A stretch of 61,289 bases of DNA. Source: an uncultured Burkholderiales bacterium (GTDB lineage: Bacteria > Pseudomonadota > Gammaproteobacteria > Burkholderiales > JAEUOS01). The notes under the pieces are model-generated. The model was not told where the DNA came from, searched no databases, and saw nothing but the letters and a program-made list of their open reading frames with translations. Location: contig CAYUEG010000006.1 of NCBI GenBank assembly GCA_964443245.1, positions 1-61,289 on the forward strand. Direction: 5' to 3'. Numbering within the stretch: position 1 is the first letter of the stretch; every line of letters starts with the position of its first letter. The translations under genes and the position numbers were made by a program. Shown piece by piece: positions 7,282-49,526 of the stretch.

Positions 7282-9489
7282 TCAGGCCAGGGCGGCCTTC
7301 ACGCGCTCCGGTGTGAACGGCTGGTGGCGCAGGTATTTGCCAGTGAGCTTGGCGACGGCGTTGGCAATGGCGGGGGCGACCGGCGGCAAACCGCACTCGC
7401 CGACCCCCCCAGGCGGATTGTCTGTCACCATCACCTTGACCTGGATCGGCGGGATCTCGTTCATGCGCGCCACCGGATAATCATGGAAATTGGATTGCTG
7501 GACAGCGCCATTGACGAGCGTGATCTGCTCCTTCAGGGTGCCGGACAGGCCGTAGACGATGCTGCCCTCGACCTGAGTGGCGACGTTCTGCGGCAACACG
7601 GCCACCCCGGTATCGACTGCCGCCCATACACCGTGCACCTTGATCACGCCGGACTTCTTGTCCACCGAGACTTCGACAACTTCGGCAATATGGGTTTCCC
7701 ACATCTCGGAGTAGGCAATCCCCAGGGCGCGGCCGGCCGGGCGCTTCTTGTCCCAGCCTGCCATCTTCGCCACTTCGCGGATGACCGCCTGCGCGCGAGG
7801 ATGTTTGGCCAGCATCTTCAGTCGGTATTCCACCGGGTCGGTCTTGCTCAAGGCTGCGACTTCGTCGATCAACATCTCGACAGCGTGCTTGGTGTAGCCA
7901 CCACCTACGGCGCGCCAGAAGCCATTGTCGACGCCGCGTTCCTGTCTGGCGTACTCGATCAGTGAATCCTTGATGTCGTAGAGGAATTCTGCACCTTCAT
8001 GGAACGGCTGATCCTTTCCGCCAGCTGCCTTGAACGCACCCGGATTGGCACGGGCGTAGATCGATTCGCCGGCCAAGCGGGCGTGCCAGCCGACGATGTT
8101 GTTCGAAGCATCCAGGCCCACCTCCAGGTGCTGTGCCACCAGCGGCCGGAATTTGTCGTTCTTGACATCGTCCTCGCGCGTCCAGGTCACCTTGACCGGC
8201 TTGCCGTCGGCAGCCTTGGCCAGCAACACCGCATCAAGGGTGAAGTCAGCGTCGACCCGGCGACCGAAGCCGCCACCGAGCAAGGTGTTGTTGACCTTGA
8301 TGTTCGGTACCGGCACCTTGGTGACGATGTTGGTGACGATCGCGGCGATGGTCGGGCTTTGGCAAGGCGACCAGATCTCGATGCGGTCGTCGCCGGTCCA
8401 CTGGGCGGTGGCATTCATCGGCTCCAGGCACATGTGCGCCATGTGTTCGGAGAGAAAATCGGCCTTCAGCACCTTGGCCGCACTTTTGATGTTGCCGTTG
8501 CCGGCACCGTGCTTTTCGACTTCGACGCCGGCCTTGGAAAGGTCCAGATCGGCCGCTGCCGCTGCGTAGGCCTTGCCCACATCAGCCGAGTTGTAGGTCT
8601 TGGTGATGGCATCGTTGGCCCAGGTGACCTTGAGCGCATCCCTGGCCTGGCGCGCGGACCAGGTGTTGTCGGCCAGCACACCTACGCCATAGGGCAGGGG
8701 CACGGTCTTGATGAAGCCCTTGACGGCCTTGGCAGCCGAATCGTCCATCGTGGCCAGCTTGTCCTTGTGCATCGGCGGGCGCAGCACGGCGCCGTACAGC
8801 ATGCCGGGCAAGCGGGTGTCGATGCCGTAGATGGCGGCGCCGCGTACCTTGTCGGCCAGGTCAATGCGCGCCACATTCTTGCCGATATAACGAAAGCTGC
8901 TGGCCGGCTTCAGTTGCGCGGCCGTCACGGTCGGCAGGGTGGCTGGCACCTTGGCAAAGCCGGCGATCTCGCCATAGCCCATGCTGCGGTTGGAAGCCTT
9001 GTGCCACACCACGCCAGGTTCGGTGCTCAGTTCCGAGACCGGCACGTTCCAGCGCTCCGCCGCTGCACCGAGCAAGACCAGCCGGGTTTGGGCGCCAGCG
9101 ATGCGCAACACCTCGTAGTAGCCACGCGTGGTGCGCGACGCACCTGTCACCATGCCCCCATTGAAAAGCTTGTTGCCGTAGGCTTTGGGGTTATGGCCGG
9201 CCTGCACGACTTTGACCTTCGACCAGTCCGCATCCATGTCCTCGGCCAGGCACAAAGGCATGGCGGTCATGGTGCCCTGGCCCATTTCGGAGGCCGGGGA
9301 AAGAATCGACACGATGCCGTCGGTGCCGATGGTGACCCACTGGTTCGGGGCCAGGCCGGCTGCCTGGGCAGCGGCCTTCTTGGAAGCGGTCAGGGCGGGC
9401 ACGCCAAAGGCGACGCCGATGGCCACGCTACCGGAGCCAACCAGAAACTGGCGGCGCGAAAGGGTCAGGGTCTTGATCCTGGATGTCAT
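7282..9489 (-). CDS. Molybdopterin-binding subunit, isoquinoline 1-oxidoreductase beta (IorB)-like, Tat-exported
   Basis: Tat motif SRRQFL, SEMGQG, GGGFGRR, FWRAVG, GGVGE. IorB-type architecture. Confidence 0.88.
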   Translation of the reverse strand: MTSRIKTLTLSRRQFLVGSGSVAIGVAFGVPALTASKKAAAQAAGLAPNQWVTIGTDGIVSILSPASEMGQGTMTAMPLCLAEDMDADWSKVKVVQAGHNPKAYGNKLFNGGMVTGASRTTRGYYEVLRIAGAQTRLVLLGAAAERWNVPVSELSTEPGVVWHKASNRSMGYGEIAGFAKVPATLPTVTAAQLKPASSFRYIGKNVARIDLADKVRGAAIYGIDTRLPGMLYGAVLRPPMHKDKLATMDDSAAKAVKGFIKTVPLPYGVGVLADNTWSARQARDALKVTWANDAITKTYNSADVGKAYAAAAADLDLSKAGVEVEKHGAGNGNIKSAAKVLKADFLSEHMAHMCLEPMNATAQWTGDDRIEIWSPCQSPTIAAIVTNIVTKVPVPNIKVNNTLLGGGFGRRVDADFTLDAVLLAKAADGKPVKVTWTREDDVKNDKFRPLVAQHLEVGLDASNNIVGWHARLAGESIYARANPGAFKAAGGKDQPFHEGAEFLYDIKDSLIEYARQERGVDNGFWRAVGGGYTKHAVEMLIDEVAALSKTDPVEYRLKMLAKHPRAQAVIREVAKMAGWDKKRPAGRALGIAYSEMWETHIAEVVEVSVDKKSGVIKVHGVWAAVDTGVAVLPQNVATQVEGSIVYGLSGTLKEQITLVNGAVQQSNFHDYPVARMNEIPPIQVKVMVTDNPPGGVGECGLPPVAPAIANAVAKLTGKYLRHQPFTPERVKAALA

Positions 9490-9499
9490 CGTCTTCTCC

Positions 9500-9976
9500 T
9501 TACGCCTTGGCCGCGGGGGCGGCTTTGGCCTTGGTGCCGGCTGCACGCTCGATCGCGCTGACGATCTGCTGGTAAGTGCCGCAGCGGCAGATGTTGCCGC
9601 TCATCGCATCGACAATCTGCTTGCGGTTTGGCTTCGGTGTCTTCTTGAGCAGGGCGGCGGCCGTCATCAGCTGGCCGGACTGGCAGTAGCCGCACTGCGG
9701 CACGCCTTCGGCAATCCAGGCTTTCTGCAGCGGGTGATCGCCATTGGCAGACAGGCCTTCAATGGTGGTCACCGGCTTGGTGCCGACGCTGGCGGCCGGC
9801 GTCACACAGGAGCGGGTCGGCACGCCGTTGATGTGTACGGTGCAGGCGCCGCACTGCGCAATGCCGCAGCCGAATTTGGTGCCGGTCATGCCGAGCGTAT
9901 CGCGCAGGACCCACAAGAGGGGCATTTCGCCGGGGACGTCTGCTTCGACGCGCTTGCCATTGACGTTCAATTGCAT
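9500..9976 (-). CDS. (2Fe-2S)-binding subunit, IorA-like
   Basis: [41 protein letters not shown] before MQLNVNG. Confidence 0.92.
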
Positions 9977-10018
9977 GGTGTCTCCTTGGTCCATCTTTGT
10001 TGAGTGGTAAAGCGGCCG

Positions 10019-19768: not shown

Positions 19769-19852
19769 ATGAACCTGACGAACAAACATCGTGTGTGGAG
19801 CGCCGCTCCGGGGGCATGGCCCTGGCGCCCTGCGGAGATCTCGCGCGGCTGA
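19769..19852 (+). CDS. Putative trp leader peptide, 27 aa MNLTNKHRVWSAAPGAWPWRPAEISRG
   Basis: Manual translation, below the ORF-track cutoff. Three TGG codons (W10, W17, W19) in the gph-trpE gap. Confidence 0.75.
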   Translation: MNLTNKHRVWSAAPGAWPWRPAEISRG

Positions 19853-19868
19853 AAAAGCCCGCCCGTCC

Positions 19869-19910
19869 CGCCGGATCAGCAATCCCGGCGCCTGATGTTG
19901 TTTGACTTTC
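19869..19910 (+). terminator. Candidate attenuator hairpin before trpE
   Basis: CGCCGGAT-CAGCA-ATCCCGGCG stem with one bulge, followed by a broken U-rich run CCTGATGTTGTTTGACTTTC. Confidence 0.4.
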
Positions 19911-19921
19911 AAGGTTCGATC

Positions 19922-21487
19922 ATGACTCCGCAGCAATTCGACGCGCTCGCAGAGCGCGGCTATAACCGCATTCCCCTGGTGCTCGAGACCTTTGCCGATC
20001 TCGATACCCCCCTTTCGATCTATCTGAAGCTGGCCAATCGGCCCTACACCTACCTGCTGGAGTCCGTGCAAGGGGGCGAGCGCTTTGGCCGTTATTCGTT
20101 CATTGGCTTGCCGTGCCAGACGCGCATCGTGGTGCGTGGCGACGTTACGCAAGTGGTGCACGGCGAGACGGTGGCCGAGCAGTCCACCGGGGCCAATCCG
20201 CTCGATTTCATCCGCACCTACATGCGGCGCTTCAAGGTGGCGCCACTGCCCGGTCTGCCCCGGTTTGCGGGTGGTCTGGTTGGCGCCTTCGGGTATGACT
20301 GTGTCCGCTATGTCGAACCCCGCCTGGACAAATTCATTCGTCGCCGCCCGCAGAAGCCGGATCCGATCGGGGCGCCGGACATCGTGCTGTTGCAGAGTGA
20401 AGAAGTGGCGATTGTCGACAATCTGGCCGGCAAGCTCTACCTGGTGGTGTATGCGGATCCGCGCAATCCGGGCAGCTATGCCTACGGGCAGGAGCGCCTG
20501 CGGCAGTTGCTGGCACTGCTGCGCGAGCCGGCCGACATTCCCGACCATGCGCCGGCCGTGGCCCATGTGGCGCAGTCCAACTTCGGCGAGGCGAGCTACC
20601 TGGAAGCCGTGGCGCGCTCCAAGCAATACATCCTTGATGGCGACGTGATGCAGGTGCAGCTTGGCCAGCGCCTGACAAGGCGTTTTGATGCCGAACCGCT
20701 GGCGCTGTACCGGGCGTTGCGTACGCTCAACCCGTCGCCCTACATGTTCTATTTCAATTTTCGCGAGTTTCATGTGGTGGCCGCCTCGCCGGAAATTCTG
20801 GTTCGCGTGGAACCCGAATCGCCCGAGGCAGCCGCTGCCGAAGGCGGCGGAGGCAGCAAGCGCGTGACCATCCGTCCGCTTGCCGGCACGCGCAAGCGCG
20901 GCGCCACGCCGGAAGAGGACAAGGCGCTCGCGGCGGAACTCCTGGCTGACCCCAAGGAGCGCGCGGAACATGTGATGCTGATCGATCTGGGCCGCAACGA
21001 TCTGGGCCGGATTGCCGAGATTGGCAGTGTGAAGGTGACGGACACGATGGTGATCGAGCGCTATTCGCACGTGATGCATATCGTGTCGAACGTCGAAGCG
21101 CGCCTCAAACCGGGCCTGGATGCCATCGACGTCTTCAAGGCGTCGTTTCCCGCCGGCACATTGACGGGCGCACCCAAGGTGCGGGCGATGGAGATCATCG
21201 AGGAACTGGAGCCGGTCAAACGCGGCATTTACGGCGGTGCTGCCGGCTACCTGGGCTTTCATGGCGACATGGACCTGGCCATTACCATTCGCACCGGCGT
21301 GATCAAGGATGGCCTGCTGCATGTACAGGCGGCAGCCGGCATTGTTGCCGATTCAGTACCGGAAGCCGAATGGAACGAGACCCGTATCAAGGCGCAGGCG
21401 GTGTTGCGCGCGGCAGAAATGGCCACAGCGGGTCTGGATACCAAGAGCGGGTCGCGTGCGGCGCCAGCGGCGGGAGGCAAGCCATGA
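19922..21487 (+). CDS. trpE: Anthranilate synthase component I
   Basis: [77 protein letters not shown]. Confidence 0.97.
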
Positions 21488-22056
21488 TCCTGATGATCGA
21501 CAACTACGATTCGTTCACCTGGAATCTGGTGCAGTACTTCGGTGAGCTGGGTGCCGACATGAAGGTCGTCCTCAATGATGAACTGACGGTGGCCGACGTG
21601 GCGGCCATGCGCCCCGAGAAGATTGTGGTGTCTCCCGGGCCTTGTTCGCCGAACGAAGCCGGCATTTCACTGGAGGCGATCACCACCTTTGCCGGCAAGC
21701 TGCCGATTCTCGGCGTATGCCTGGGACACCAGGCCATTGGTCAGGCCTTTGGTGGCAAGGTGGTACACGCCAAGACCCTGATGCATGGCAAGACAGCGCC
21801 GGTCGAGCACACCAGCCAAGGCGTTTTTGCCGGCTTGCCCTCGCCGTTTACTGCCACGCGCTATCACTCGCTGGCGGTGGAGCGCGCCAGCCTGCCAGAC
21901 TGCCTTGAAGTGACCGCCTGGACGGCCGACGGCGAGATCATGGGCGTCAAGCACAGGACCCTGCCGATCGAAGGCGTACAGTTTCACCCTGAATCGATAC
22001 TGACCGAGCATGGCCATCAGATGCTGAAGAATTTTCTACAAGGAGAGAACCCATGA
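21484..22056 (+). CDS. trpG: Anthranilate synthase component II (glutamine amidotransferase)
   Basis: [39 protein letters not shown]. Confidence 0.96.
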
Positions 22057-23078
22057 TTACCCCCCAGGAAGCCCTCACCCGCGTGATCGAACACCGGGAG
22101 ATTTTTCACGACGAGATGCTCGAGATCATGCGCCAGATCATGAGCGGCCAGATGTCGCCGGTGCTGATTTCGGCCATCATCATCGGCCTGCGCGTGAAGA
22201 AGGAAACGATTGGCGAAATCACCGCTGCGGCACAGGTGATGCGCGAATTGGCGACCAAGGTCAATGTCAAGGATCCGCAGAATCTGGTCGATATCGTCGG
22301 CACCGGCGGCGATGGGTCGCACACCTTCAACATTTCCACTGCGTCGATGTTTGTGACCGCGGCCGCCGGCGCGCGCGTCGCCAAGCACGGCAACCGGGCG
22401 GTGTCGTCCAAATCGGGGGCGGCGGACGTGCTGGAGGCGTTCGGTGCCAACATCGTGCTGCCACCGGCACAGGTCGGCCAGTGCATTGACGAGGTGGGCA
22501 TCGGATTCATGTTTGCCCCCAACCACCATTCGGCGATGAAGCACGCCGCGCCGGTGCGCCGCGAACTGGGCGTGCGTACGATCTTCAACATCCTCGGCCC
22601 GCTCACCAATCCGGCTGGTGCGCCGACGCAACTGATGGGCGTGTTCCACAGCGACCTCGTGGGCATTCAGGCGCGCGTGCTGCAACGTTTGGGTACGCGC
22701 CATGCCATGGTGGTCTACGGCCTTGAAGGCCTGGACGAAATCTCGGTTTCCGGCCGCACTTGCGTCGGCGAGCTGAAGAATGGCAAGGTCGAGGAGTACG
22801 AGATTCACCCAGAGCGCTTCGGCCTGGGCGTGCATGATCCGCGCACCATCAAGGTGGGAACGGTAGAGGAGTCGCGTGACATGGTGCTCTCGGCACTGGA
22901 GAACAAGCCGGGCGCCCCGCGCGACATCGTGGCGGTCAACGCCGGCGCGAGCATCTATGTTTCCGGCAAGGCCGATTCCCTCGAGGCCGGTGTGGAGAAG
23001 GCGTTCGAGATCATCAAGAGTGGTGCGGCGCGTGCCAAGCTGGACGATTTTGTCCGCGCGACCAACCAGTTCAAATAG
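22053..23078 (+). CDS. trpD: Anthranilate phosphoribosyltransferase
   Basis: [43 protein letters not shown]. Confidence 0.97.
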
Positions 23079-23081
23079 GCG

Positions 23082-23870
23082 ATGAGCGACATTCTCGACA
23101 GGATTCTGGCTGTCAAGGCCACCGAAGTTGCCGCTGCCAAGGGACGCATGGACCTTGCAGCGATCCGACGTGCGGCCGAGAGCGCAGTGCCGGTGCGCGA
23201 CTTTGCCGGTGCCCTGCGCAGCAAGATTGCCGCAGGCCGGCCTGCCGTGATCGCCGAGATCAAGAAAGCCAGCCCGTCCAAAGGCGTGATCCGCGCGGAC
23301 TTCAAGCCGGCAGAGATTGCGGCGGATTACGCAGCGCATGGGGCGGCCTGCCTTTCGGTACTGACAGACCAGGAGTTCTTCCAGGGCCATGCCGAGTACC
23401 TCAAGGGAGCCCGTGCCGCCTGCCACCTGCCGGTCCTGCGCAAGGATTTCATGGTCGATGAATACCAGGTCTTTGAGGCACGCGCCTGGGGTGCGGATGC
23501 GATTTTGTTGATTGTCGCCGCGCTTGATGCAGGTCAAATGAAGGCGTTTGAGTCCGTCGCGCACGAACTGGGTATGGCAGTATTGGTCGAAGTACATGAT
23601 GCTGCCGAGCTGGACATGGCATTGCAGCTCAAGACCCCGCTTCTCGGCATCAACAACCGCAACCTGCGCACCTTTGAGACTTCGCTGGAATCCACCTTGA
23701 CACTGTTGCCACGCATTCCGCAAGACAGGCTGGTCGTCACCGAATCCGGCATTCTCGGCCCGGCGGATGTGGCGCGGATGCGCTCTGCCGGTGTCAATGC
23801 GTTTTTGGTAGGTGAGGCGTTCATGAAGGCCCCCAGTCCTGGAGAGGAACTGGCACGTTTGTTCGCGTAG
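23082..23870 (+). CDS. trpC: Indole-3-glycerol phosphate synthase
   Basis: [46 protein letters not shown]. Confidence 0.97.
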
Positions 23871-23894
23871 TCCCGCAGTCCTTTGGGAGGATCT

Positions 23895-24341
23895 ATGGCC
23901 GCAAAACAGCATGGATACTGGCTCGCAGCCTTCATCGGCCTGACAGCCTTGTGCACCAACGCTTTCGGGCAATTGCCCCAGGTGAAAACCCAGGGCGTCG
24001 TGAGTTACGTTTCCGGTGGGATTGGTGACGACGAAGAGGCCGCCATCCGCGGTGCCGCCAAGGAGTATGGCGTGCTACTGGAATTCACCGAGGTCGAGCG
24101 CGGCACGTCCCACGGCCGCTGGACTGCGGATGTCGGCATCAGCATCAGGGCCGGCAACGAAGTCGTCCTGAACGCCCGCTCCGACGGGCCGCTGATGCTG
24201 GTCAAGCTGAAGCCCGGCAGTTATGTGGCCGAGGCGGACCGCCAGGGCGCAAAGCTCACCAAGCGGCTGGAGGTCAAGGCCAACGCCGTGGCGCGCGAGC
24301 GCTTCTTCTGGATCGTCGAAGGGCCGCTTACGCCACGCTAG
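23895..24341 (+). CDS. Exported hypothetical protein (carboxypeptidase-regulatory/transthyretin-like fold suspected)
   Basis: RBS GGAGGA and signal peptide. YVSGGIGDDEE...GPLMLVKLKPGSY pattern is common in exported betaproteobacterial proteins. Confidence 0.7.
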   Translation: MAAKQHGYWLAAFIGLTALCTNAFGQLPQVKTQGVVSYVSGGIGDDEEAAIRGAAKEYGVLLEFTEVERGTSHGRWTADVGISIRAGNEVVLNARSDGPLMLVKLKPGSYVAEADRQGAKLTKRLEVKANAVARERFFWIVEGPLTPR

Positions 24342-25359
24342 CGGCTTCGCGCGCCACTTCGGCCGCCAGCAACTTGCGAAACTGCACCAGGGCCGCATCC
24401 ATCCACAGCGGCTGCATCGCGCTATCCGGATTCAGGTTCTGGTGCTGCGCGGTGATCATGTCGCGGTCTTCATTGAAAGCCGTCAACAGACTGTTGAAGA
24501 TGCCGTCGGTGATCGCGGAGGCGCCGGCACCGGCCTGATGCGCCTGCTGAAAAAAGTAGTGGGTCGTGGTTTCGGTTTCCGGGGTGAGGGTCTGGCAGCT
24601 GTGCAACTGCACGGCGTTGGCAAGATTGTCGGGTGCATCGGCGACGGGTCGGCCGCCTGATTTCATCAACAGGGTGCCGGGCAGGAGAAAATCGTAGATG
24701 AACCAGCGATCCACGTGGGTGGCGAGCGGGCGGATCTTGCTGTAGTAAGGTGGTGGCGGCACGTTGGGCACGTGGCGGCTGACCCGCAGGCCGCGCTGGC
24801 CACAGGTGTCGATGGGCTCGATCGTCGGGCGCGCCTGCGCGATCGCGGTTGAGCCGCCCAGTGTCTTTTCATGCACGTAAGAGAGATGCGAAAAATCGAG
24901 CAGGTTGTCGCAAATGAGCAGATACGGCGTGTCGTAGTGCATGTAGCCAGGCTTGTAGTGCCACGCCGGATCATCGTTCGAGAAGTTGTCGGGCAACAGG
25001 GCCGTGTCGGCGCGCGCCGCATCTCCCATCCACACAAACACCCACTTGTTCCTTGACACCACGGGGTAGGTCCTGACGCGCAAGCCCGCCGGCGCCTTCT
25101 CCAGCCCCGGGACTTCGACGCACCGACCTGTGGCGTCGAATTTGAGCCCGTGGTAACCGCAGCGAATGCAGTCGCCCTCACGTTTGCCTTTCGAGAGCGG
25201 CGCCTGACGGTGGCAACAGCGGTCTTCCAGCACCGTCCATTCGCGGGCTGCGGTACGGTAGACGAGGAGTGGTTCTCCCAGCACCTTGCGGGCAAGGACG
25301 CCTCCTTCAGGGATCTCATGATCCCAGGCGATGACATACCAGCAATTGCGCAACCACAT
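24328..25359 (-). CDS. Rieske non-heme iron oxygenase alpha subunit, VanA/TsaM-like
   Basis: Rieske ligands DRCCHR...CGYHG, mononuclear Fe motif DNLLDFSHLSYVH, C-terminal FNEDR. RBS GGAGA before MWLRNCWY. Confidence 0.92.
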   Translation of the reverse strand: MWLRNCWYVIAWDHEIPEGGVLARKVLGEPLLVYRTAAREWTVLEDRCCHRQAPLSKGKREGDCIRCGYHGLKFDATGRCVEVPGLEKAPAGLRVRTYPVVSRNKWVFVWMGDAARADTALLPDNFSNDDPAWHYKPGYMHYDTPYLLICDNLLDFSHLSYVHEKTLGGSTAIAQARPTIEPIDTCGQRGLRVSRHVPNVPPPPYYSKIRPLATHVDRWFIYDFLLPGTLLMKSGGRPVADAPDNLANAVQLHSCQTLTPETETTTHYFFQQAHQAGAGASAITDGIFNSLLTAFNEDRDMITAQHQNLNPDSAMQPLWMDAALVQFRKLLAAEVAREAASVA

Positions 25360-25501
25360 GAGGGTTTCTCCAGGCCGGGGGTATGGCAGGGGGCGGTGGC
25401 GGGTCGGGACACGCCGCCGCCGGCGAAATGGTACACGCCGGGCGCGCGGTTTGGCTGCAGGCGATGTACCGGCCAGGCGCATGCGGCAAGGTTACAGGCG
25501 C

Positions 25502-25518
25502 CATAATGGAAACTTATG
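25502..25518. promoter_or_regulatory. LysR recognition site (T-N11-A) in the divergent promoter
   Basis: CATAA-TGGAAAC-TTATG inverted repeat between the Rieske gene and lysR. Confidence 0.7.
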
Positions 25519-25586
25519 CCATCACGGGTTGCGCGTTTTCGTTCGCCCACCCAAAATGAACCGGTTCAACAGAAGGAAGCGACGCA

Positions 25587-26552
25587 ATGCGTGCCCCCCC
25601 GCTTGACTTGAGGCTGCTGGAAGTGTTCGAGGCAGTATTCGTGGAGAAAAGCCTGACCAACGCCGCCGTCAAGCTTTCCATGAGCCAACCGGCGGTCAGC
25701 CAGGGTCTGGCGCGCCTGCGCGCCCATTTTGGCGATCCGTTGTTTGTGCGCCTGGTCGGCGGCATGGAGCCGACGCCGCGTGCCAAAGAGTTGTTCGGTT
25801 CGGTCAGCAGCATTCTTAAGGAAGCGCGCGAATCGCTGGTGGCCAAGCCTGCATTCGAAGCGGCCGACAGTACGCGTGAATTCGTCATTGCCACCACCGA
25901 TCTGGGGGCGGCGGCACTGATCCCCGGCCTGATCGATGCCGTGCGCAAAAGTGCACCGCACGTGCGGATCGCCAGTGTGAGTGCAGACGGGCGCGACCTT
26001 GCCGAGGCGATGGCCGCCGGCGATGTGGACCTGGCGATCGGCAATTTCCCTGTTTTGCAAACCGGCTTTTACCAGCAGGGCCTGTACCAGGAAACCTATG
26101 TGCTGCTCGCCAACCCGGCACGCGCGCGTGCCGAGGAGGAACTCACTCTGGAGGAGTTCCGTGCTTCGCGGCATGTCCTGGTGACGGCGGGCACCTCCGG
26201 GCATTTCCACGGCGAGATCGAGCGACGCCTGCGGGCGCTGATTCCACCCGACCATGTGGTGGCAACGCTGTCCAATTTCATTGTGGCGCCGCTGGTGGCG
26301 CGCGGTAGTGATCTTCTGGTGACCGTTCCCAGCAGGGTGGCGCGTATCTATGCCACGCTGTTCGGGCTGGAAGAACTGGCACCGCCGCTCGAACTCCCCG
26401 CCTATCCGATCACCCAGTACTGGCATGCGCGTTATCACCATGATCCGGGGTTGATGTGGATGCGGCGTCTGGTGCACGAACTGTACTCGGCAGGAGGCGA
26501 GGCACATGCCGTGTTTTCAGGGGGTGATGCCAGTGTGGAGTACAGCGAATGA
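25587..26552 (+). CDS. LysR-family regulator (NahR/DntR/NodD-like subgroup)
   Basis: LDLRLLEVFEAV...SLTNAAVKLSMSQPAVSQGLARLR.HFGDPLFVR..GGMEPTPRA, and YWHARYHHDPG..WMR. Confidence 0.93.
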   Translation: MRAPPLDLRLLEVFEAVFVEKSLTNAAVKLSMSQPAVSQGLARLRAHFGDPLFVRLVGGMEPTPRAKELFGSVSSILKEARESLVAKPAFEAADSTREFVIATTDLGAAALIPGLIDAVRKSAPHVRIASVSADGRDLAEAMAAGDVDLAIGNFPVLQTGFYQQGLYQETYVLLANPARARAEEELTLEEFRASRHVLVTAGTSGHFHGEIERRLRALIPPDHVVATLSNFIVAPLVARGSDLLVTVPSRVARIYATLFGLEELAPPLELPAYPITQYWHARYHHDPGLMWMRRLVHELYSAGGEAHAVFSGGDASVEYSE

Positions 26553-27427
26553 GCGCGCTCCAGTACTTGCGGCCGACCCGGCTGGACGAAGCGCTCGCCG
26601 CGCTGGCGGCGCAACCCTGGGCGGTGCTGGCCGGCGGCACGGACTTTTATCCGGCACGTGTGGGAAAACCGGTCGATATGGACATTCTCGATATCACCCG
26701 GGTGGCGAACCTGCGCGGGATCCGCGAGGAAGGCCACTGCTTTCGTATCGGAGCTGCCGTCACCTGGAGCGAACTGATCGCCACCTCGCTGCCGCCCCAG
26801 TTTGATGGATTGAAGGCCGCCGCCCGTGAAGTGGGCGGTGCGCAGATCCAGAATGCCGGCACCGTGGTGGGTAACCTGTGCAACGCCTCCCCGGCAGCGG
26901 ATGGCGTTCCTGCGTTGCTGGCGTTGGGGGCGCAGGTCGAGTTGGCCTCGACGAAAGCGAAGCGCCGCTTGCCGCTGGCCGATTTTGTGTGCGGCAACCG
27001 CAAGACTGCCCGCCGGCCACAGGAACTGGTGACGGCGGTGCTGGTGCCCAAATGGCGTGCCAATGCCCAAGGGGTGTTTCTGAAGCTGGGCCACCGGCGC
27101 TATCTGGTGATCTCGATTGCGATGGTATCGGCGGTCGTAGCGTTGGACGACGCCGGGCGGGTGGCCATGTGCGGCATCGCCGTGGGGGCCTGCTCTGCCG
27201 TCGCGCAACGGCTGCCCGGGCTGGAAGCCAGGCTCACCGGTCGGCCGGCACGGGAGGCCGCCGGGCTGGTCACAGCGGAGGATCTGCGTCACTTGACCCC
27301 GATCGATGATGTGCGCGGCAGTGCGGCCTACCGCCTCGATGCCGCACTGACGCTGGTGCGTGAGGCCGTCGCGCTGGCGGTGGATGCCAAGGCCGCAGCG
27401 GCGTTGGCCGGTGGAGGAATGCGATGA
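26549..27427 (+). CDS. Xanthine dehydrogenase-family FAD-binding subunit
   Basis: LAGGTDFYP, AQIQNAGTVVGNLCNASPAADG, PIDDVRGSAAYR. Confidence 0.92.
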   Translation: MSALQYLRPTRLDEALAALAAQPWAVLAGGTDFYPARVGKPVDMDILDITRVANLRGIREEGHCFRIGAAVTWSELIATSLPPQFDGLKAAAREVGGAQIQNAGTVVGNLCNASPAADGVPALLALGAQVELASTKAKRRLPLADFVCGNRKTARRPQELVTAVLVPKWRANAQGVFLKLGHRRYLVISIAMVSAVVALDDAGRVAMCGIAVGACSAVAQRLPGLEARLTGRPAREAAGLVTAEDLRHLTPIDDVRGSAAYRLDAALTLVREAVALAVDAKAAAALAGGGMR

Positions 27428-30291
27428 ACCAGCCACGCGAGCGCGGCCTGTTTGATGAACTGGAAAAAGAGCCAGGATCGTTGGTGGGAGCCGATCTGGC
27501 GGGCATGGCCCTGACCGTCAATGGCAAACCCCAGATCCTGCACTGTGCCCCCTCCAAGCGCCTGGTGTATGCCTTGCGCGAAGACCTGGGCCTCACCGGA
27601 ACCAAGGTCGGTTGCGATGCCGGGGATTGCGGCGCCTGCACGGTCCTCCTTGAGGGCAAGCAGGTGTGTGCGTGCATCACGCCGGCGGCGCAGGCGGAAG
27701 GCTGCAATGTAACCACCGTGGAAGGCCTGGCGGAAGAAGGCAAGCTCAACACCCTGCAACAGGCATTTCTCAAGCATGGCGCGGCCCAGTGCGGCATTTG
27801 CACGCCTGGCATGCTGATGGCGGCCAGCGACCTGTTGTCGCGCAACGCCGCACCGAGCGAGGCCCAGGTGCAGGACGCATTGGGTGGCGTGTTGTGTCGC
27901 TGCACCGGTTATCGCAAGATCATTGATGCCGTGCTGGCCGTGGCCAGCGGGGATATCGCGCTGGATGGTGAGGATTATCAGGCGCCGGTCGGCAAGGCGG
28001 TCGGCAGCCGCCTGGCGCGTCTCGATGGCCCGGCCAAGCTCACCGGTGCCGAGAAATATGGGGCGGATGTCGTGCCGGAAGGCGCCCTGACGTTACGCAT
28101 CATCCGCTCGCCGCATGCACGTGCCACTTTCACCTTGGGCGATCTCGAAGCGTTTCGTGCCGCCTACCCGCAGGTGGAAGGCATCATCACCGCAGCGGAT
28201 GTGCCGGAGAATTCTTTTGCCGTGTTCCCCACACCGAAAGACCAACCCGTCCTCGCAGATGGCCATGTGCGCTTTCGCGGTGAGGCGGTGCTGGGCCTGA
28301 TCGGCGCGGAAGAGGCGATTCGCGCGATTCCCGAAAGTGCGGTGCCGATTACATGGCATGTCGGCCAGGCTTTGGAAACCTCCGAAGCGGCGCTGGCTGC
28401 CGCATTGGTCGCTCCTGACGATGCTCTGCATGCGTTTGCTGCGGACAATGTGCTGTGCCGCGGCCGGGTGGTGAAGGGCGACATCGCCACAGGCTTGCAA
28501 CAGGCTGCCTTCAAGGCCGAGGGCAGGTTTGAAACCACGCACGTCGAGCATGCCTACATCGAGCCGGAGGCTGGCTATGCCGAGGTGTTCGAGCAGGATG
28601 GCAAGCAACGCATCCGCATCTTTGCCTGCACGCAAACGCCGTACATGGATAAGGAAGAGGTGGCGCGCGTACTGAAGCTGCCGCTGGATGCCGTACACGT
28701 TGTGCCCTCGGCCATCGGCGGCGGCTTTGGCGGCAAGCTGGATGTTTCGATTCAACCGCTGCTCGCAGTGGCGGCCTGGAAGATGAAGCGGCCAGTGCGG
28801 ATTGTCTACACCCGGCCCGAATCGATGGTCTCCACCACCAAGCGGCACCCGGCCGACATGCAGGTCACCCTGGGCTGTGACGCATCGGGCCAGTTGACGG
28901 CGGTTGATTTTGCCGGCGATTTCAATACCGGTGCCTACGCCTCGTGGGGTTCCACCGTGGCCAACCGCGTGCCGGTACACGCCAGCGGGCCTTACAAGGT
29001 GCCCCATGTGCGTGCGTTGACGCGCGCCGTCTACACTCACAATGCGATTGCCGGGGCGTTCCGTGGCTTCGGCGTGCCGCAAGCCTGCATCGCCACCGAA
29101 GCGCTGATGGACGATCTGGCCGCCCAGTGCGGCATGGATCGCTTTGAGTTTCGCCTGAAGAACGCGATTCGCGCCGGCGACCAAACCGCAACTGGTCAGG
29201 AGCTCAAAGCCAGCGTCGGTATGGCAGCCTGCCTTGAAGCCTTGCGCCCCGCCTGGCTCAATACGCAGAGCGAGGTGGCGCGCAAGAATGGCTCCAGGAG
29301 CGCTTCTCCGGGCCATGGCGCCGTCTCTTCCAATCTGCGCTATGGCGCGGGCATCGCATGCATGTGGTACGGCATTGGCAATACGGTGATTGCCAATCCC
29401 TCCACCATCACCATCGGCTTGCGTCAGAACGGGCGCTTCATGCTCTACAACGGCGCGCAGGAGATCGGGCAGGGTACCTACACCATCATGCCGCAGATTG
29501 CGGCGGATGCCCTGGGCGTATCGGTGACGCTGATTGACCAGATTCATGGCGATACGGATCTCACCGAGGACGCCGGCAAGTCGTCGGCATCGCGGCAGAC
29601 CTTCGTGTCCGGCAATGCCACCAAATTCGCTTCCGAGGATCTGAAGCAGCAGTTGTGCGCGTTGCTCGGTGTCGCGGAGGATGCCACGCTGACGCTCGAA
29701 GGCGCAGTATTGGTAGGGCGCGATGCAGAGGGTGAGAAGCGCCTGGATCTGGCTCAGGCGAAAGCCGATGCGCGTGGTGATGTTGCCCTGGGTCGCGGCA
29801 CCTTCAGCCCGCCGACGGTCCCGCTGGATGGCGATGGCCAGGGTGTGCCCTACGCCACCTACGGCTTTGCCGCCCAAATCGCGGAGGTGGAAGTCGATAT
29901 GGACCTCGGCACCGTCAAGGTGCTGCACATCCATGCCGCCCATGACGTCGGCCGCGCCGTCAATCCGACCCAGGTCGAAGGCCAGATCCACGGCGGCGTT
30001 GCGCAAGGCTTGGGGCTGGCACTGATGGAGGAATACATCAGCGGCCGTACCGACAACCTGCACGACTACCTGATCCCGACGATTGGCGACATTCCACCGA
30101 TCACCACCTACATCATCGAGGATGCGGAGCCGATTGCACCCTATGGTGCCAAGGGGGTGGGGGAGCCGGCGTTGATTGCGACGGCACCGGCCATCTTTGG
30201 CGCCATCCGGCAGGCGACGGGGGTGCGGGTGGATGTCGCACCGTGTACGCCGGATCGACTACGCCAGCGCATCAAGGCACAGCATTCATGA
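27424..30291 (+). CDS. Molybdenum hydroxylase with the 2x[2Fe-2S] domain fused to the molybdopterin domain (nicotinate dehydrogenase-like family suspected)
   Basis: N-terminal GCDAGDCGAC, QCGICTPG, CRCTGY. Mo domain GGGFGGK, AFRGFGVPQ, GAKGVGEP. Confidence 0.9.
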   Translation: MNQPRERGLFDELEKEPGSLVGADLAGMALTVNGKPQILHCAPSKRLVYALREDLGLTGTKVGCDAGDCGACTVLLEGKQVCACITPAAQAEGCNVTTVEGLAEEGKLNTLQQAFLKHGAAQCGICTPGMLMAASDLLSRNAAPSEAQVQDALGGVLCRCTGYRKIIDAVLAVASGDIALDGEDYQAPVGKAVGSRLARLDGPAKLTGAEKYGADVVPEGALTLRIIRSPHARATFTLGDLEAFRAAYPQVEGIITAADVPENSFAVFPTPKDQPVLADGHVRFRGEAVLGLIGAEEAIRAIPESAVPITWHVGQALETSEAALAAALVAPDDALHAFAADNVLCRGRVVKGDIATGLQQAAFKAEGRFETTHVEHAYIEPEAGYAEVFEQDGKQRIRIFACTQTPYMDKEEVARVLKLPLDAVHVVPSAIGGGFGGKLDVSIQPLLAVAAWKMKRPVRIVYTRPESMVSTTKRHPADMQVTLGCDASGQLTAVDFAGDFNTGAYASWGSTVANRVPVHASGPYKVPHVRALTRAVYTHNAIAGAFRGFGVPQACIATEALMDDLAAQCGMDRFEFRLKNAIRAGDQTATGQELKASVGMAACLEALRPAWLNTQSEVARKNGSRSASPGHGAVSSNLRYGAGIACMWYGIGNTVIANPSTITIGLRQNGRFMLYNGAQEIGQGTYTIMPQIAADALGVSVTLIDQIHGDTDLTEDAGKSSASRQTFVSGNATKFASEDLKQQLCALLGVAEDATLTLEGAVLVGRDAEGEKRLDLAQAKADARGDVALGRGTFSPPTVPLDGDGQGVPYATYGFAAQIAEVEVDMDLGTVKVLHIHAAHDVGRAVNPTQVEGQIHGGVAQGLGLALMEEYISGRTDNLHDYLIPTIGDIPPITTYIIEDAEPIAPYGAKGVGEPALIATAPAIFGAIRQATGVRVDVAPCTPDRLRQRIKAQHS

Positions 30292-31070
30292 GCGCCCGCG
30301 CGCCAGTGGCGCTGGTGACCGGTGGCCGCCGCGGCATCGGTCGTGGCATCGCTTTCGCGATGGCCGATGCCGGTTACGACGTGGTGATCAACGACATCGA
30401 GTTCGATGCGGCGACCACCGAAACGCTGGAAGCCATCATGGCCAAAGGCCGGCGCGCGCGCTTTGTGCTGGGGGATCTGGCCGACATCGAATCGCACCAG
30501 GCGATGCTTGATCAGGCTTGGTCGTCCTTCGGCACGCTCGACGTATTGGTCAACAACGCCGGCGTGCAGGTGAAGGTGCGTGGCGATATCCTGGACGTGA
30601 TGCCGGAAAGCTTTGACCGGCTGATGGACACCAACCTGCGCGGCACCTTTTTCCTGACGCAGGCGGTGGCCAAGCGCATGGTGAAAGAGAAGCGCACAGC
30701 CGATGATCCGCCGCGCGCCATCGTGACGATCTCTTCGGCCAATGCGATCACCATCGTCGGTCCCAATCGCGCGGAGTACTGCATTTCCAAAACCGGCTTG
30801 TCGATGATGACGCAGCTGTATGCCGAGCGTCTCGCCCAGGACGACATCATGTGCTACGAGATTCGCCCGGGCATCATCGCCACTGACATGACCCGGCCGG
30901 CCAAGGAGCGTTACGACAAATTGATCGCCGAGGGCATCACGCCAGTGCGGCGCTGGGGCCTGCCGGAGGACATCGGCAAGACGGTGGTGGCGCTGGCGGG
31001 CCGGGCGCTGCCGTTCAACACCGGCGCGGCCTTCTACGTCGATGGCGGCTTGCACATGAAGGTCATGTAG
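30288..31070 (+). CDS. Short-chain dehydrogenase/reductase (FabG-like)
   Basis: TGGRRGIG, NNAG, catalytic YCISK, IRPGII.TDM. Confidence 0.9.
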   Translation: MSARAPVALVTGGRRGIGRGIAFAMADAGYDVVINDIEFDAATTETLEAIMAKGRRARFVLGDLADIESHQAMLDQAWSSFGTLDVLVNNAGVQVKVRGDILDVMPESFDRLMDTNLRGTFFLTQAVAKRMVKEKRTADDPPRAIVTISSANAITIVGPNRAEYCISKTGLSMMTQLYAERLAQDDIMCYEIRPGIIATDMTRPAKERYDKLIAEGITPVRRWGLPEDIGKTVVALAGRALPFNTGAAFYVDGGLHMKVM

Positions 31071-31088
31071 CCTGCCGACCCTGCCGCT

Positions 31089-31107
31089 GCCGGAGCGTGG
31101 CTCCGGC
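31089..31107. terminator. GC hairpin between convergent SDR and ABC genes
   Basis: GCCGGAGC-GTG-GCTCCGGC 8-bp stem. No clear U tract. Confidence 0.35.
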
Positions 31108-31109
31108 GG

Positions 31110-32918
31110 TTAGTCTTGCCCGAACTGCAGTGTCGCCAGGCGGGCGTAGAGGCCACCGGCCGCCAGCAGTGATTCATGGGTGCCAATGGCATCGATGCGC
31201 CCGTGATCCATGACAACGATGCGATCGGCTTTCCTCACCGTGGCCAGGCGATGGGCAATTACCAGGGTAGTGCGGCCCTGCATCAGGTTCTCCAGCGCCT
31301 GCTGGACATGGCGCTCGCTCTCGGCGTCCAGCGCGCTGGTGGCTTCATCGAGCAGCAATACCGGCGGATTCTTCAGGATCGCCCGCGCGATGGCGATGCG
31401 CTGGCGCTGGCCACCGGACAGGCGCACGCCGCGTTCACCGACAAAGGTGGCATAGCCTTCCGGCAGGCGGGCGATGAATTCATCCGCCATGGCGGCTTTG
31501 GCCGCCGCCTTCACGTCTTCATCGGAGGCATCGGCGCGGCCGTAGCGGATGTTCTCCATCGCGTCGGCAGAGAACACCACCGTGTCCTGCGGCACGATGC
31601 CGATGCGGGCGCGCAACGCGAGCGGATCGACTTGCGCAATATCGGTGCCGTCCAGCAGGATGCGCCCGTGCTGGGGATCATAGAAACGCAGCAACAACTG
31701 GAACAATGTGGTCTTGCCGGCACCCGAGGGGCCGACCACGGCCACTGTTTCTCCAGCGCGCACGTGCAGGTCGAAATGGTCGAGGGCGGCCTGCTCGGGG
31801 CGTGAAGGGTAGTGAAAGCGCACCGCTTCCATGCGGATGTCGCCACTCTTGCCCGGTTCCGCGGGGCGGAGTGGCAATGGGTGTGCCGCCACGATGATGG
31901 CGGGCTTGGCGGCCAGCAGCTCCATCAGGCGTTCGGTGGCGCCGGCGGCGCGCTGCACATCACCCCACACTTCCGAGAGCGCGCCGATGCTGGTGGCGAC
32001 CAATACGGCATACAGCACGAACTGCGACAAGACACCCGCCGTCATGCTGCCCTCCAGTACGGCCCGGGCGCCCAGCCACAGCACCAGCACGATGGCGCCA
32101 AACACCATGACGATGATGATCGCCGTGAGCGCAGCACGAGCCTGGATGCGGCGGCGCGCAGTATCGAAAGAGGCTTCCACCGAATCATCGAAGCGGGCGA
32201 CCTCGCGGCCTTCCTGGGTGAAGGCCTGCACGGTGGGCATGGCATTCAGCTTCTCGCCGGCCAGGGCCGAGGAATCGGCCACCCGATCCTGGCTCGCGCG
32301 GGAGAGTTTGCGCACCTGCCGGCCAAACGCAATGATCGGCAGGATCACGCACAGCAGCAGGGCGAGCGTGAATCCGGTCAGGCGCGGGCTGGTAACGCCC
32401 ATCATGACGAGGCCGCCGATCAGCATCACGAAGCTGCGTAGCGCCATCGACATGCTGGTTCCCACCACGGTCTGGATCAGGGTGGTATCCGTGGTGAGGC
32501 GCGACAACACCTCACCGGTGCGCGTGGTTTCAAAGAAAGCCGGGCTCATGCCCAGCACGTGGCGATAGACCGCGCTGCGCACGTCCGCTACGACCCGCTC
32601 GCCCAGCCAGGAAACGAAGTAGAAGCGTGCGGCAGTGAAGATACCGAGCACTGCCGCCACTCCGAAGAGCAGCAGGAAGTAGCGGTCAATGTGGGCGGCA
32701 TTCGAGCTCGAAAAACCCTGGTCGATCATCTGGCGCACTGCCAGTGGCAGGACCAGCGAGGCGCCGGCGGCAATCAGGAGCGCAATCAGCGCCAGCAGCA
32801 GCGTGCCGCGATACGGCCACAGGAAGGGCGCCAGTTGGCCCAGGGGGCCGAGGCGCGCGGTCTGCACAGGGGCGGGCTTTCCGGATGGGGCCGCCGTGGC
32901 AGCCGTGAAGTCGGTCAT
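31110..32918 (-). CDS. ABC transporter, fused permease and ATPase, MsbA-related
   Basis: TM domain with [10 protein letters not shown] and [15 protein letters not shown]. Walker A GPSGAGKT, signature [21 protein letters not shown]. Confidence 0.92.
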
Positions 32919-49279: not shown

Positions 49280-49526
49280 GTCGTCGTGGAGGATAAAGGG
49301 GTCGAAATGTGGGCATCACGCGGCAGGGCGCGATGCTGCAGGGCAATATGTTAATCCATGGACGTGGTATTGATCGCTGCATGCACCAGAAAAGTGTCTG
49401 CCAGCATCGAAAAGGGGCAGGTTAGTCCCTGTGTTCGCCGTCGCAATCGCGCGGTGGTTCCCTAGAATCGGAGATGCAAATTGCTGCCTGGTCAGGCGGC
49501 ATCGGGTCTGGATGAGCGGGGTAATC

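Follow-up and report, generated by a model that had tools for sequence, protein, structure and literature searches.

A probable nicotinate-cluster head operon beside a separate, divergent Rieske oxygenase gene in an uncultured Burkholderiales bacterium

Introduction

Five genes at positions 24328–31070 of contig CAYUEG010000006.1, from an uncultured freshwater or biofilter Burkholderiales bacterium, raise the question of whether they encode one catabolic route or two unrelated units that happen to adjoin. A Rieske non-haem-iron oxygenase gene is read divergently from an operon for a LysR-family regulator, the FAD and fused iron–sulphur/molybdenum (FeS/Mo) subunits of a molybdenum hydroxylase, and a short-chain dehydrogenase (SDR). 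We analysed the whole stretch of 61,289 nucleotides, here called the window. An earlier interpretation made from the letters of the DNA (the sequence-only reading) had treated all five genes as a candidate undescribed pathway organised like TsaMBCD/TsaR. We favour, with moderate confidence, a different answer, in which two units lie side by side: the head operon of a nicotinate cluster and a separate, divergent Rieske gene.

The lysR operon probably heads a nicotinate cluster

The four co-directional genes of the operon are as follows.

25587–26552, plus strand: LysR-family regulator (HTH_1 and LysR_substrate domains), first gene of the operon (Pfam)
26549–27427, plus strand: FAD-binding subunit of a xanthine-dehydrogenase-family hydroxylase, NdhF-like (Pfam)
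27424–30291, plus strand: fused subunit with two [2Fe-2S] clusters and molybdopterin domain, 955 amino acids (aa), probable nicotinate dehydrogenase, equivalent to NdhS, NdhL and NdhM (Pfam, similarity to nicotinate dehydrogenase, synteny)
30288–31070, plus strand: short-chain dehydrogenase of 260 aa, optional nicotinate-cluster member (Pfam, NCBIfam)

Pfam searches of 24328–31070 recovered all five of the genes that had been named there, and the three 4-nt overlaps reported with them proved to be ATGA stop/start overlaps at lysR/FAD (26549–26552), FAD/Mo (27424–27427) and Mo/SDR (30288–30291). We read the four genes from lysR to the SDR as one operon with translational coupling.

The FAD subunit matches FAD_binding_5 (5e-41) and CO_deh_flav_C, while the Mo protein contains Fer2, Fer2_2, the a/b hammerhead domain (Ald_Xan_dh_C) and MoCoBD_1/2, with the motifs CDAGDCGAC, CGIC..CRC, GGGFGGK and GVGEP (including the glutamate) all present. 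When the Mo domain is searched alone, its top match among solved structures is the large subunit of Eubacterium barkeri nicotinate dehydrogenase (NDH), at 203 bits over 262 residues as against 135 bits for the Desulfovibrio gigas aldehyde oxidoreductase. Against the full Mo protein, the NDH chains 3HRD_A, B and D score 229, 210 and 140 bits, which together exceed the 365 bits of the D. gigas enzyme. The window enzyme also reads GGGFGGKLD, as NDH does, where xanthine dehydrogenase reads GGGFGGKE (Glu802). A xanthine dehydrogenase was considered and rejected, on the leucine at the Glu802 position and on synteny.

The resemblance to E. barkeri NdhFSLM (3HRD) thus extends to the FAD subunit, the two [2Fe-2S] clusters, the molybdopterin domain and the GGGFGGKLD stretch. 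The two systems differ in that the S, L and M chains are separate in E. barkeri and fused into a single protein in the window, and in that the window organism is an aerobic-type member of the Burkholderiales; the E. barkeri enzyme is selenium-dependent. A second point of reference is NicAB of Pseudomonas putida, which carries out the same presumed reaction, from nicotinate to 6-hydroxynicotinate. In NicAB the small FeS subunit is separate, the Mo subunit is fused to cytochrome c domains and an FAD subunit is missing; the window enzyme, by contrast, includes an FAD subunit and lacks a cytochrome domain.

Orthologues of the Mo protein (58–92% identity) are common in Burkholderiales genomes and metagenomes. 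We surveyed 83 such loci, comprising three genomic contexts and 80 metagenome loci, and mapped their neighbours by tblastn; the FAD and fused FeS/Mo genes of the window are orthologous to the heads of the Hnr-containing clusters found there, and the FAD gene precedes the Mo gene in 70 of the 83. Downstream genes were counted at the 52 loci with at least 2.5 kb of downstream sequence. A 509-aa protein, Hnr, follows the Mo gene, or the SDR gene where there is one, at 50 of these 52 loci; it has no Pfam domain but displays an N-terminal CxxCxxxC..C motif, and its homologues are named 6-hydroxynicotinate reductase by NCBI and JGI. The other recurrent neighbours are an ApbE-like/UPF0280 gene (PRK04334; 48/52), a urea/branched-chain-type ABC binding protein (37/52), a DUF1185/AA_synth gene (33/52), an isochorismatase-family gene (13/52) scoring 201 bits against the NCBIfam nicotinamidase/pyrazinamidase (PncA-type) cut-off of 174, an SDR orthologue (10/52) and a second Rieske oxygenase with a VanA_C domain, here Rieske2 (3/52).

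This gene order matches a cluster already in the literature. The published description places nicotinate clusters at AZC_2790–2804 in Azorhizobium caulinodans, blr3818–3830 in Bradyrhizobium japonicum and RPB_1658–1671 in Rhodopseudomonas palustris, and assigns to them steps one to three of nicotinate breakdown, together with an ABC transporter and two unknown but conserved proteins (PMC3511419, citing Alhapel 2006). The same account puts the Bradyrhizobiaceae Hnr homologue at 42% identity to the characterised E. barkeri enzyme, and reports that A. caulinodans, which carries this cluster type, uses the THON (tetrahydro-6-oxonicotinate) route for nicotinate (PMC3511419). The likeness was drawn through that description and the Burkholderiales loci. 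Two differences should be noted: the window has the head only (regulator, hydroxylase and SDR), with Hnr and the rest not within its 61 kb, and the cluster as described in PMC3511419 does not name SDR, LysR or VanA_C Rieske genes, which are accessories of a Burkholderiales subclade.

Because homology to NDH and synteny with Hnr clusters agree, the FAD and FeS/Mo subunits most likely form a nicotinate dehydrogenase, and lysR–FAD–[2Fe2S+Mo]–SDR can be read as the head of the described proteobacterial nicotinate (6-hydroxynicotinate/THON) cluster. The proposal of an undescribed pathway therefore does not stand for these genes, since lysR–FAD–Mo(–SDR) heads a cluster that PMC3511419, citing Alhapel 2006, describes for Azorhizobium, Bradyrhizobium and others. 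The chemistry suggested alongside it survives in part: ring hydroxylation of a pyridine carboxylate, with nicotinate as the likely neighbourhood, is favoured by NDH as the best solved relative of the Mo domain, by Hnr downstream and by the PncA-type nicotinamidase of some clusters, whereas aldehyde oxidation by the molybdoenzyme is not.

The SDR matches Pfam adh_short_C2 (1.6e-48) and passes the cut-off of NCBIfam PRK12745 (354 bits against 250), and its nearest solved structures are uncharacterised structural-genomics proteins. Its orthologues (67–97%) lie between the Mo gene and Hnr at 11 of the 83 loci and also in L001 and L169, and one follows the Mo gene in the truncated locus L164. The SDR is accordingly an optional member of the nicotinate cluster. 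At two sister loci a ribbon-helix-helix antitoxin and PIN toxin pair occupies exactly the SDR position (L167 12858–13516; L168 4056–4714).

Other parts of the clusters deserve brief mention. Hnr is almost always followed by the ApbE-like/UPF0280 gene (L081 13560–15966 and its equivalents at 48–50 of the 52 loci). The E. barkeri Hnr carries a covalently bound flavin, and the ApbE-like protein may be the flavin transferase of Hnr. Rieske2 (L081 17348–18415; L001 5–1027, minus strand; L167 17650–18756; L169 16966–18087; also L084 and L120) lies between the DUF1185 or amidase gene and the ABC binding protein, in a subclade only; it is 36% identical to the window Rieske protein and closer to DdmC (196 bits). 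On paper, the pathway around it requires no oxygenase. As for enamidase, the enzyme of the third step, the one Amidohydro_1/3 gene noticed was at the edge of L083, with none adjoining the window module in open reading frame (ORF) scans that used no enamidase query. For DUF1185 the literature search returned structural-genomics reports only.

The intergenic LysR box most likely belongs to the operon

The region between the Rieske and lysR genes contains three features of interest.

25427–25438, no strand: conserved motif AATGGTACACGC in the Rieske-proximal half (cross-locus invariance)
25502–25518, plus strand: LysR-type dyad CATAATGGAAACTTATG, 17 nt (uniqueness, conservation)
25529–25557, plus strand: putative lysR-operon promoter, TTGCGC at 25529–25534, a 17-nt spacer and CAAAAT at 25552–25557 (from cross-locus conservation)

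The sequence-only reading had noticed a T-N11-A site here, between the two divergent genes. The site is real: it occupies 25504–25516, inside the dyad CATAATGGAAACTTATG. The pattern CATAA-N6-CTTATG occurs once in the window, against 0.00 expected from 100 shuffles, and a search of 170 fetched loci found it only in the ten with an orthologous lysR (L001, L081, L082, L084, L086, L164–166 and L169–170) and always about 70–90 bp 5' of the lysR ATG. The box is aligned and conserved in the window, L001, L081, L082, L084 and L086; L167, with its truncated lysR, has a degenerate version, and L005 and L006, which lack lysR, have none.

LysR orthologues (68–95%) keep the same position in L081, L082, L084, L086, L001, L164 and L169. 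In the first four of these the gene upstream of lysR is a same-strand TPR or HD-domain gene and not a Rieske gene. Since the box is retained at four loci without a Rieske neighbour, we assign it to the putative lysR-operon promoter, and it is informative about that operon and not about the Rieske gene. The gene order agrees: lysR is divergent from the Rieske gene, yet it is co-directional with and first in the Mo operon, and the box lies about 20 nt upstream of the operon's putative −35. Control of the Rieske gene by LysR is conceivable all the same.

The candidate promoter is suggested by conservation across loci. The blocks GGTTGCGC and CACAAT/CAAAAT, 3' of the dyad, are conserved in six loci at a fixed distance from it and with −35/−10 spacing. 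A consensus scan of 24200–31300 found no sigma-70 site, the putative hexamers being a weak match, and the three terminator-like matches in the same interval are fewer than in shuffles. On the Rieske side, the AATGGTACACGC core is invariant in the window, L164, L169, L167 and L001 with flanks that are not conserved, and is absent from L005 and L006; it may be a promoter or operator element of the Rieske gene. All that remains of lysR in L167 is its 101-aa DNA-binding domain.

The Rieske gene is an intact oxygenase gene with other neighbours elsewhere

Two versions of the Rieske gene were compared.

24328–25482, minus strand: Rieske plus VanA_C ORF as listed, 384 aa (Pfam)
24328–25359, minus strand: Rieske non-haem-iron oxygenase alpha subunit with corrected start, 343 aa (Pfam, homologue lengths, ribosome-binding site)

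Codons 1–41 of the listed ORF are Arg/Pro-rich and have no counterpart in homologues, which are mostly about 340–360 aa long with the N-terminus MWLRNCWY, gene callers giving 343–346 aa in close relatives. M42 corresponds to an ATG at 25359 with GGAGA 8 nt upstream. The gene almost certainly starts at 25359 and not at 25482, and the intergenic gap is therefore 227 bp rather than 104 bp.

The protein passes the Pfam cut-offs for both Rieske (7.8e-22) and VanA_C (1e-38), and its motifs CxH-x17-CxxH (CCH..CGYH) and DxxHx4H (DFSHLSYVH) are intact. Its best solved relatives are the guaiacol O-demethylase GdmA (7QWT) and the dicamba O-demethylase DdmC (3GKE), at about 150 bits each; NdmA reaches 63 bits, and KshA and carbazole dioxygenase likewise fall far below GdmA and DdmC. 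These scores are at the level of remote homologues, and place the protein outside the VanA, DdmC, GdmA, TsaM and NdmA orthologue groups; no NCBIfam equivalog cut-off is reached (best 94 bits against 600). We describe it, by its domains and motifs, as an intact oxygenase of the VanA_C-domain group nearest to GdmA and DdmC. It resembles these two as an alpha3-type Rieske oxygenase with a VanA_C catalytic domain, but differs in that no partner reductase is adjacent and in that the window type usually has genes for a LuxR-type regulator and a Bug/TctC receptor beside it in place of lignin-monomer genes. No VanB/TsaB-type reductase was found among the window ORFs scanned, and no ORF combining a plant-type 2Fe-2S motif with RxYS lay within 7 kb of the Rieske gene at any of the 80 loci described next.

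If the five genes were one unit, the Rieske and Mo genes should be found together elsewhere. We surveyed 80 genome loci with Rieske orthologues (64–83% identity). In 73 of them a xanthine-dehydrogenase-family hydroxylase was not detected within 10 kb, and conversely none of the 83 Mo loci has a window-type Rieske gene. Co-occurrence of the Rieske gene and the Mo operon, on which the five-gene unit had been staked, is thus largely contradicted. The seven Rieske loci near a Mo hydroxylase include four of the window's own lineage: the window-type Mo operon is near Rieske only in L001, L003, L005 and L006, and the left flank of trpC and a 152-aa ORF is likewise common only to these four, L005 being too short to show it. 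The complete five-gene set is limited to the window, L001, L164–166 and L169/170, so that the search for its synteny returned a combination inherited within a single lineage.

Elsewhere the gene keeps different company. A LuxR-type regulator is upstream at 35 of the 80 loci and a Bug/TctC receptor downstream at 46, and there are other contexts too; the receptor matches BugE (2DVZ) and the nicotinate-binding Bug27 (2QPQ) about equally and is not informative. The nearest orthologues outside the lineage (77–79%) lie beside a hybrid kinase and a zinc alcohol dehydrogenase, or beside a flavin hydroxylase and a CoA ligase. On chromosome OZ257137.1 the Rieske and Mo orthologues are both present, about 1.5 Mb apart.

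The remaining adjacencies are of other kinds. In Variovorax (L060 1073–12056; L057 is the same) the order is ABC ATPases, a PncA-type amidase, a NicA-like FeS protein, a NicB-like Mo protein fused to cytochrome c, a 415-aa ORF, LuxR, Rieske and Bug/TctC; this amidase is 66–67% identical to that of the nicotinate cluster, the window-type Rieske family is represented at about 68% identity, and the NicAB-like Mo enzyme is predicted to be a nicotinate hydroxylase of a different type. In L026, a Nitrosomonadales genome bin, the Rieske gene is one gene away from a three-subunit FeS–Mo–FAD hydroxylase. Burkholderiales genomes carry roughly ten xanthine-dehydrogenase-family loci each, a figure that is an estimate and not a measurement, and one or two chance adjacencies are therefore expected among 80 loci. 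Three lineages among some 80 loci are not clearly above this chance level. The Rieske gene is a neighbour of the operon, and its membership is unproven.

The cluster is cut after the SDR gene, and its tail is most likely elsewhere

The right-hand end of the operon is marked by a single feature.

31071–31109, no strand: cluster break point, 39 bp, GC-rich hairpin GCCGGAGC..GCTCCGGC (comparison with relatives)

The cluster ends 39 bp past the SDR gene, against a converging ABC exporter gene, and this break is common to the window and L164–166 (Mo 92%). In L001 and L169/170 (Mo subunit 86–87%) the SDR is followed instead by Hnr, the ApbE-like gene, AA_synth and Rieske2; ABC transporter genes come next in L169/170, while L001 as fetched stops within Rieske2. 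Hnr is present in the relatives L001, L167 and L169, but a tblastn search with the L081 Hnr found no match in the 61-kb window, from which the ApbE-like gene, DUF1185, the ABC binding protein and the permease are also absent.

The assembly was checked against independent contigs from the metagenome X1, which span 19800–28869 and 30618–31343 at one even depth. They include the part from the Rieske gene into the Mo gene and span the SDR/ABC junction, and leave about 1.7 kb (28870–30617) uncovered; the covered stretches are therefore no assembly artefact. Over 31014–31547, part of the ABC exporter ATPase gene, contig depth rises to 72–631 in all four metagenome runs, probably by cross-mapping of conserved ABC sequence from other organisms. 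Two RNA-labelled runs gave scattered small contigs only, at depth 2–6 across the Rieske and Mo genes, which is too sparse to judge co-induction.

The retained genes are under strong purifying selection. Compared with the nearest relative, L164 (dS 0.29–0.77), dN/dS is 0.026 for lysR, 0.063 for FAD, 0.090 for Mo, 0.045 for SDR and 0.088 for Rieske. Metagenome contigs mapped on L001 further reveal a tail variant about 85% identical to it, with recurring differences, in six runs from four studies. This variant covers Hnr, the ApbE-like gene, AA_synth and Rieske2, and its depth matches that of the window organism (for example 14 against 13.6, about 11 against 12.3, and about 6 against 5–7). The organism is present at 5–14x in the freshwater samples of runs X1–X9. 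In a 5-kb tail contig from X1, about 2 kb upstream of Hnr is unlike the SDR of L001. A split cluster with its tail elsewhere in the same genome is most likely, and is the simplest reading of the contig depths. A nicotinate cluster can, it would appear, be split with both halves kept under selection.

Proposed mechanism and alternatives

If the two units are separate, the operon could work as follows. LysR would bind the dyad just upstream of its own operon's −35 and turn the operon on when its effector, presumably nicotinate or 6-hydroxynicotinate, is present. The two-subunit Mo hydroxylase would then add a water-derived oxygen at C6 of nicotinate, with electrons handed via its two [2Fe-2S] clusters to FAD and then to an acceptor. 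A later step of the route would fall to the SDR; that it oxidises or reduces a product of ring opening, 2-formylglutarate for instance, is a guess. Here and in the nearest relative the cluster is cut right after the SDR gene, with Hnr, the ApbE-like gene, DUF1185 and the second Rieske most likely located elsewhere in the genome. The window-type Rieske gene would have come to adjoin the cluster a single time, in the ancestor of the window's freshwater Burkholderiales lineage, and would not be a regular part of the pathway.

Several observations weigh against this interpretation. The 365 bits of the D. gigas aldehyde oxidoreductase are above the score of any single NDH chain, and the NCBIfam equivalogs for xanthine, aldehyde and 4-hydroxybenzoyl-CoA enzymes all fall below cut-off for the FAD and Mo subunits, the subfamily being uncurated. 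The nicotinate assignment is built from homology and synteny, and the argument for a tail in the same genome is based on contig depth alone. All fetched members of the lineage keep Rieske beside FAD–Mo through two different truncations (window/L164 and L003/L005/L006), and the adjacency of the same Rieske family to other Mo hydroxylases in Variovorax and the Nitrosomonadales bin hints at something beyond accident.

These last observations bear most directly on the alternative that survives best, though we consider it unlikely: that the Rieske enzyme is a lineage-specific addition to nicotinate catabolism with the Mo operon as its functional partner. It might convert a substituted pyridine carboxylate (e.g. 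trigonelline or another N- or O-methylated compound) to nicotinate, or oxidise 6-hydroxynicotinate further. The Rieske gene stands beside FAD–Mo in about six arrangements (the window, L164–166, L169/170, L167/168, L001 and L003/L005/L006), and the adjacency survives two independent truncations and the loss of lysR, L003, L005 and L006 retaining it though lysR, SDR and Hnr are gone. The family also appears by PncA–NicA–NicB (cytochrome c) in Variovorax and by the three-subunit enzyme in L026; close relatives have Rieske2, with its VanA_C domain, inside their nicotinate cluster; and a Bug/TctC receptor as the usual partner would fit a carboxylate substrate. Set against this are the 73 of 80 Rieske loci without a detected Mo hydroxylase and the 0 of 83 Mo loci with a window-type Rieske gene, the 1.5 Mb between the orthologues on OZ257137.1, the kinase, alcohol dehydrogenase, flavin hydroxylase or CoA ligase genes beside the nearest outside orthologues, the one or two adjacencies expected by chance from the estimated locus number, and the LysR box, which belongs to the lysR-operon promoter. 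A loose link between the Rieske gene and pyridine-carboxylate metabolism stays open at a similarly low level of confidence.

More speculatively still, and at a slightly lower likelihood, reductase-less VanA_C Rieske oxygenases of the window type and of the Rieske2 type could be recurrent accessories of Burkholderiales clusters for nicotinate or N-heterocycle hydroxylases. Such enzymes might funnel substituted pyridine carboxylates (trigonelline, N-methylnicotinamide) into the nicotinate route or oxidise 6-hydroxynicotinate, and in the boldest version they might draw their electrons from the neighbouring molybdenum hydroxylase with no dedicated reductase. Our literature search on Rieske enzymes in nicotinate or trigonelline demethylation found nothing relevant. 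Were a link between Rieske enzymes and nicotinate hydroxylases true, it would let substituted pyridines (trigonelline from plants or algae, for example) enter the catabolism of vitamin B3 at a further point.

Less probable again is that the Mo enzyme acts on another heterocycle (a pyridine or pyrazine carboxylate or amide) and that the cluster has been misnamed by homology. The FAD and Mo subunits reach no curated NCBIfam cut-off, identity to E. barkeri NDH is only moderate, and an amide substrate would likewise agree with the amidase and with the urea/branched-chain-type ABC binding protein. However, two sources call the Hnr orthologues 6-hydroxynicotinate reductase, and the account in PMC3511419 provides both the 42% identity of the Bradyrhizobiaceae homologue to the E. 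barkeri enzyme and the presence of the same cluster type in A. caulinodans, a reported user of the THON route.

We regard as very improbable the original proposal that the five genes form one TsaMBCD-like route, in which hydroxylation of a methyl or methoxy group by the Rieske enzyme is followed by alcohol oxidation by the SDR and aldehyde oxidation by the Mo enzyme, under a divergent LysR. TsaM belongs to the same broad Rieske family as the window protein, and the likeness to the TsaMBCD/TsaR system of Comamonas testosteroni consists of a Rieske oxygenase, an SDR and a LysR regulator in one neighbourhood. In favour of the proposal, the gene types are as named, O-demethylases are the nearest relatives of the Rieske protein, and the Mo subunit is strongly related to the D. 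gigas aldehyde oxidoreductase. But the Mo active-site domain is closest to nicotinate dehydrogenase, and the SDR and Mo genes belong to a separate conserved Hnr cluster with which the SDR travels. The window lacks both a TsaB-type reductase, none being found among the ORFs scanned nor a reductase-like motif pair within 7 kb at the 80 loci, and an NAD-dependent aldehyde dehydrogenase. LysR is co-directional with the Mo genes, to whose operon it and the SDR belong, and its box is kept without Rieske. Oxygenase, SDR, aldehyde-oxidising enzyme and LysR are not co-inherited as a unit in the surveyed loci, the five-gene synteny being confined to one lineage.

Finally, the idea that the four genes are decaying after the other part of the cluster was deleted, which the absence from the window of Hnr and later genes might suggest given that Hnr is directly downstream at 50 of 52 related loci, is rejected on dN/dS and has next to no probability, as the four genes are intact, with values of 0.026–0.09 over dS 0.29–0.77 since the truncation common with L164, the catalytic motifs are intact and depth-matched tail contigs occur in six metagenomes.

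Assigning the operon to the nicotinate cluster moves a candidate new pathway to a known one and keeps a wrong annotation from spreading. It also offers a usable annotation, as probable nicotinate dehydrogenases, for a large unnamed clade of fused FeS–Mo hydroxylases in freshwater and soil Burkholderiales, together with a putative specific 17-nt LysR operator alongside.

Other features of the window

To the left of the locus lie trpEGDC and a small secreted-looking ORF, and to the right the converging ABC exporter, a two-component system and a DUF748 protein; the remainder of the window is core chromosome, including tsaD, plsY, dapA and uvrB. The small ORF (23883–24341, plus strand), between trpC and the Rieske gene, encodes 152 aa, with an N-terminus resembling a signal peptide, and matches no Pfam family; it is kept in all fetched members of the lineage (57–88% aa identity, dN/dS 0.085) and overlaps the 3' end of the Rieske gene tail to tail by 14 nt. 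The trpG ORF as listed (21370–22056, plus strand, 228 aa) shares 118 nt with trpE; gene calls in relatives give 190 aa, and the true start is probably near 21484.

Two xanthine-dehydrogenase-family loci occur in the window. The second (7282–9985, minus strand) comprises a 2Fe-2S subunit at about 9551–9985 and a 754-aa Mo subunit at 7282–9546, with no adjoining FAD subunit, a layout like that of the isoquinoline-oxidoreductase or aldehyde-dehydrogenase type. At 49431–51950 (plus strand) an 839-aa protein combines a Ser/Thr protein kinase domain with an HDOD domain.

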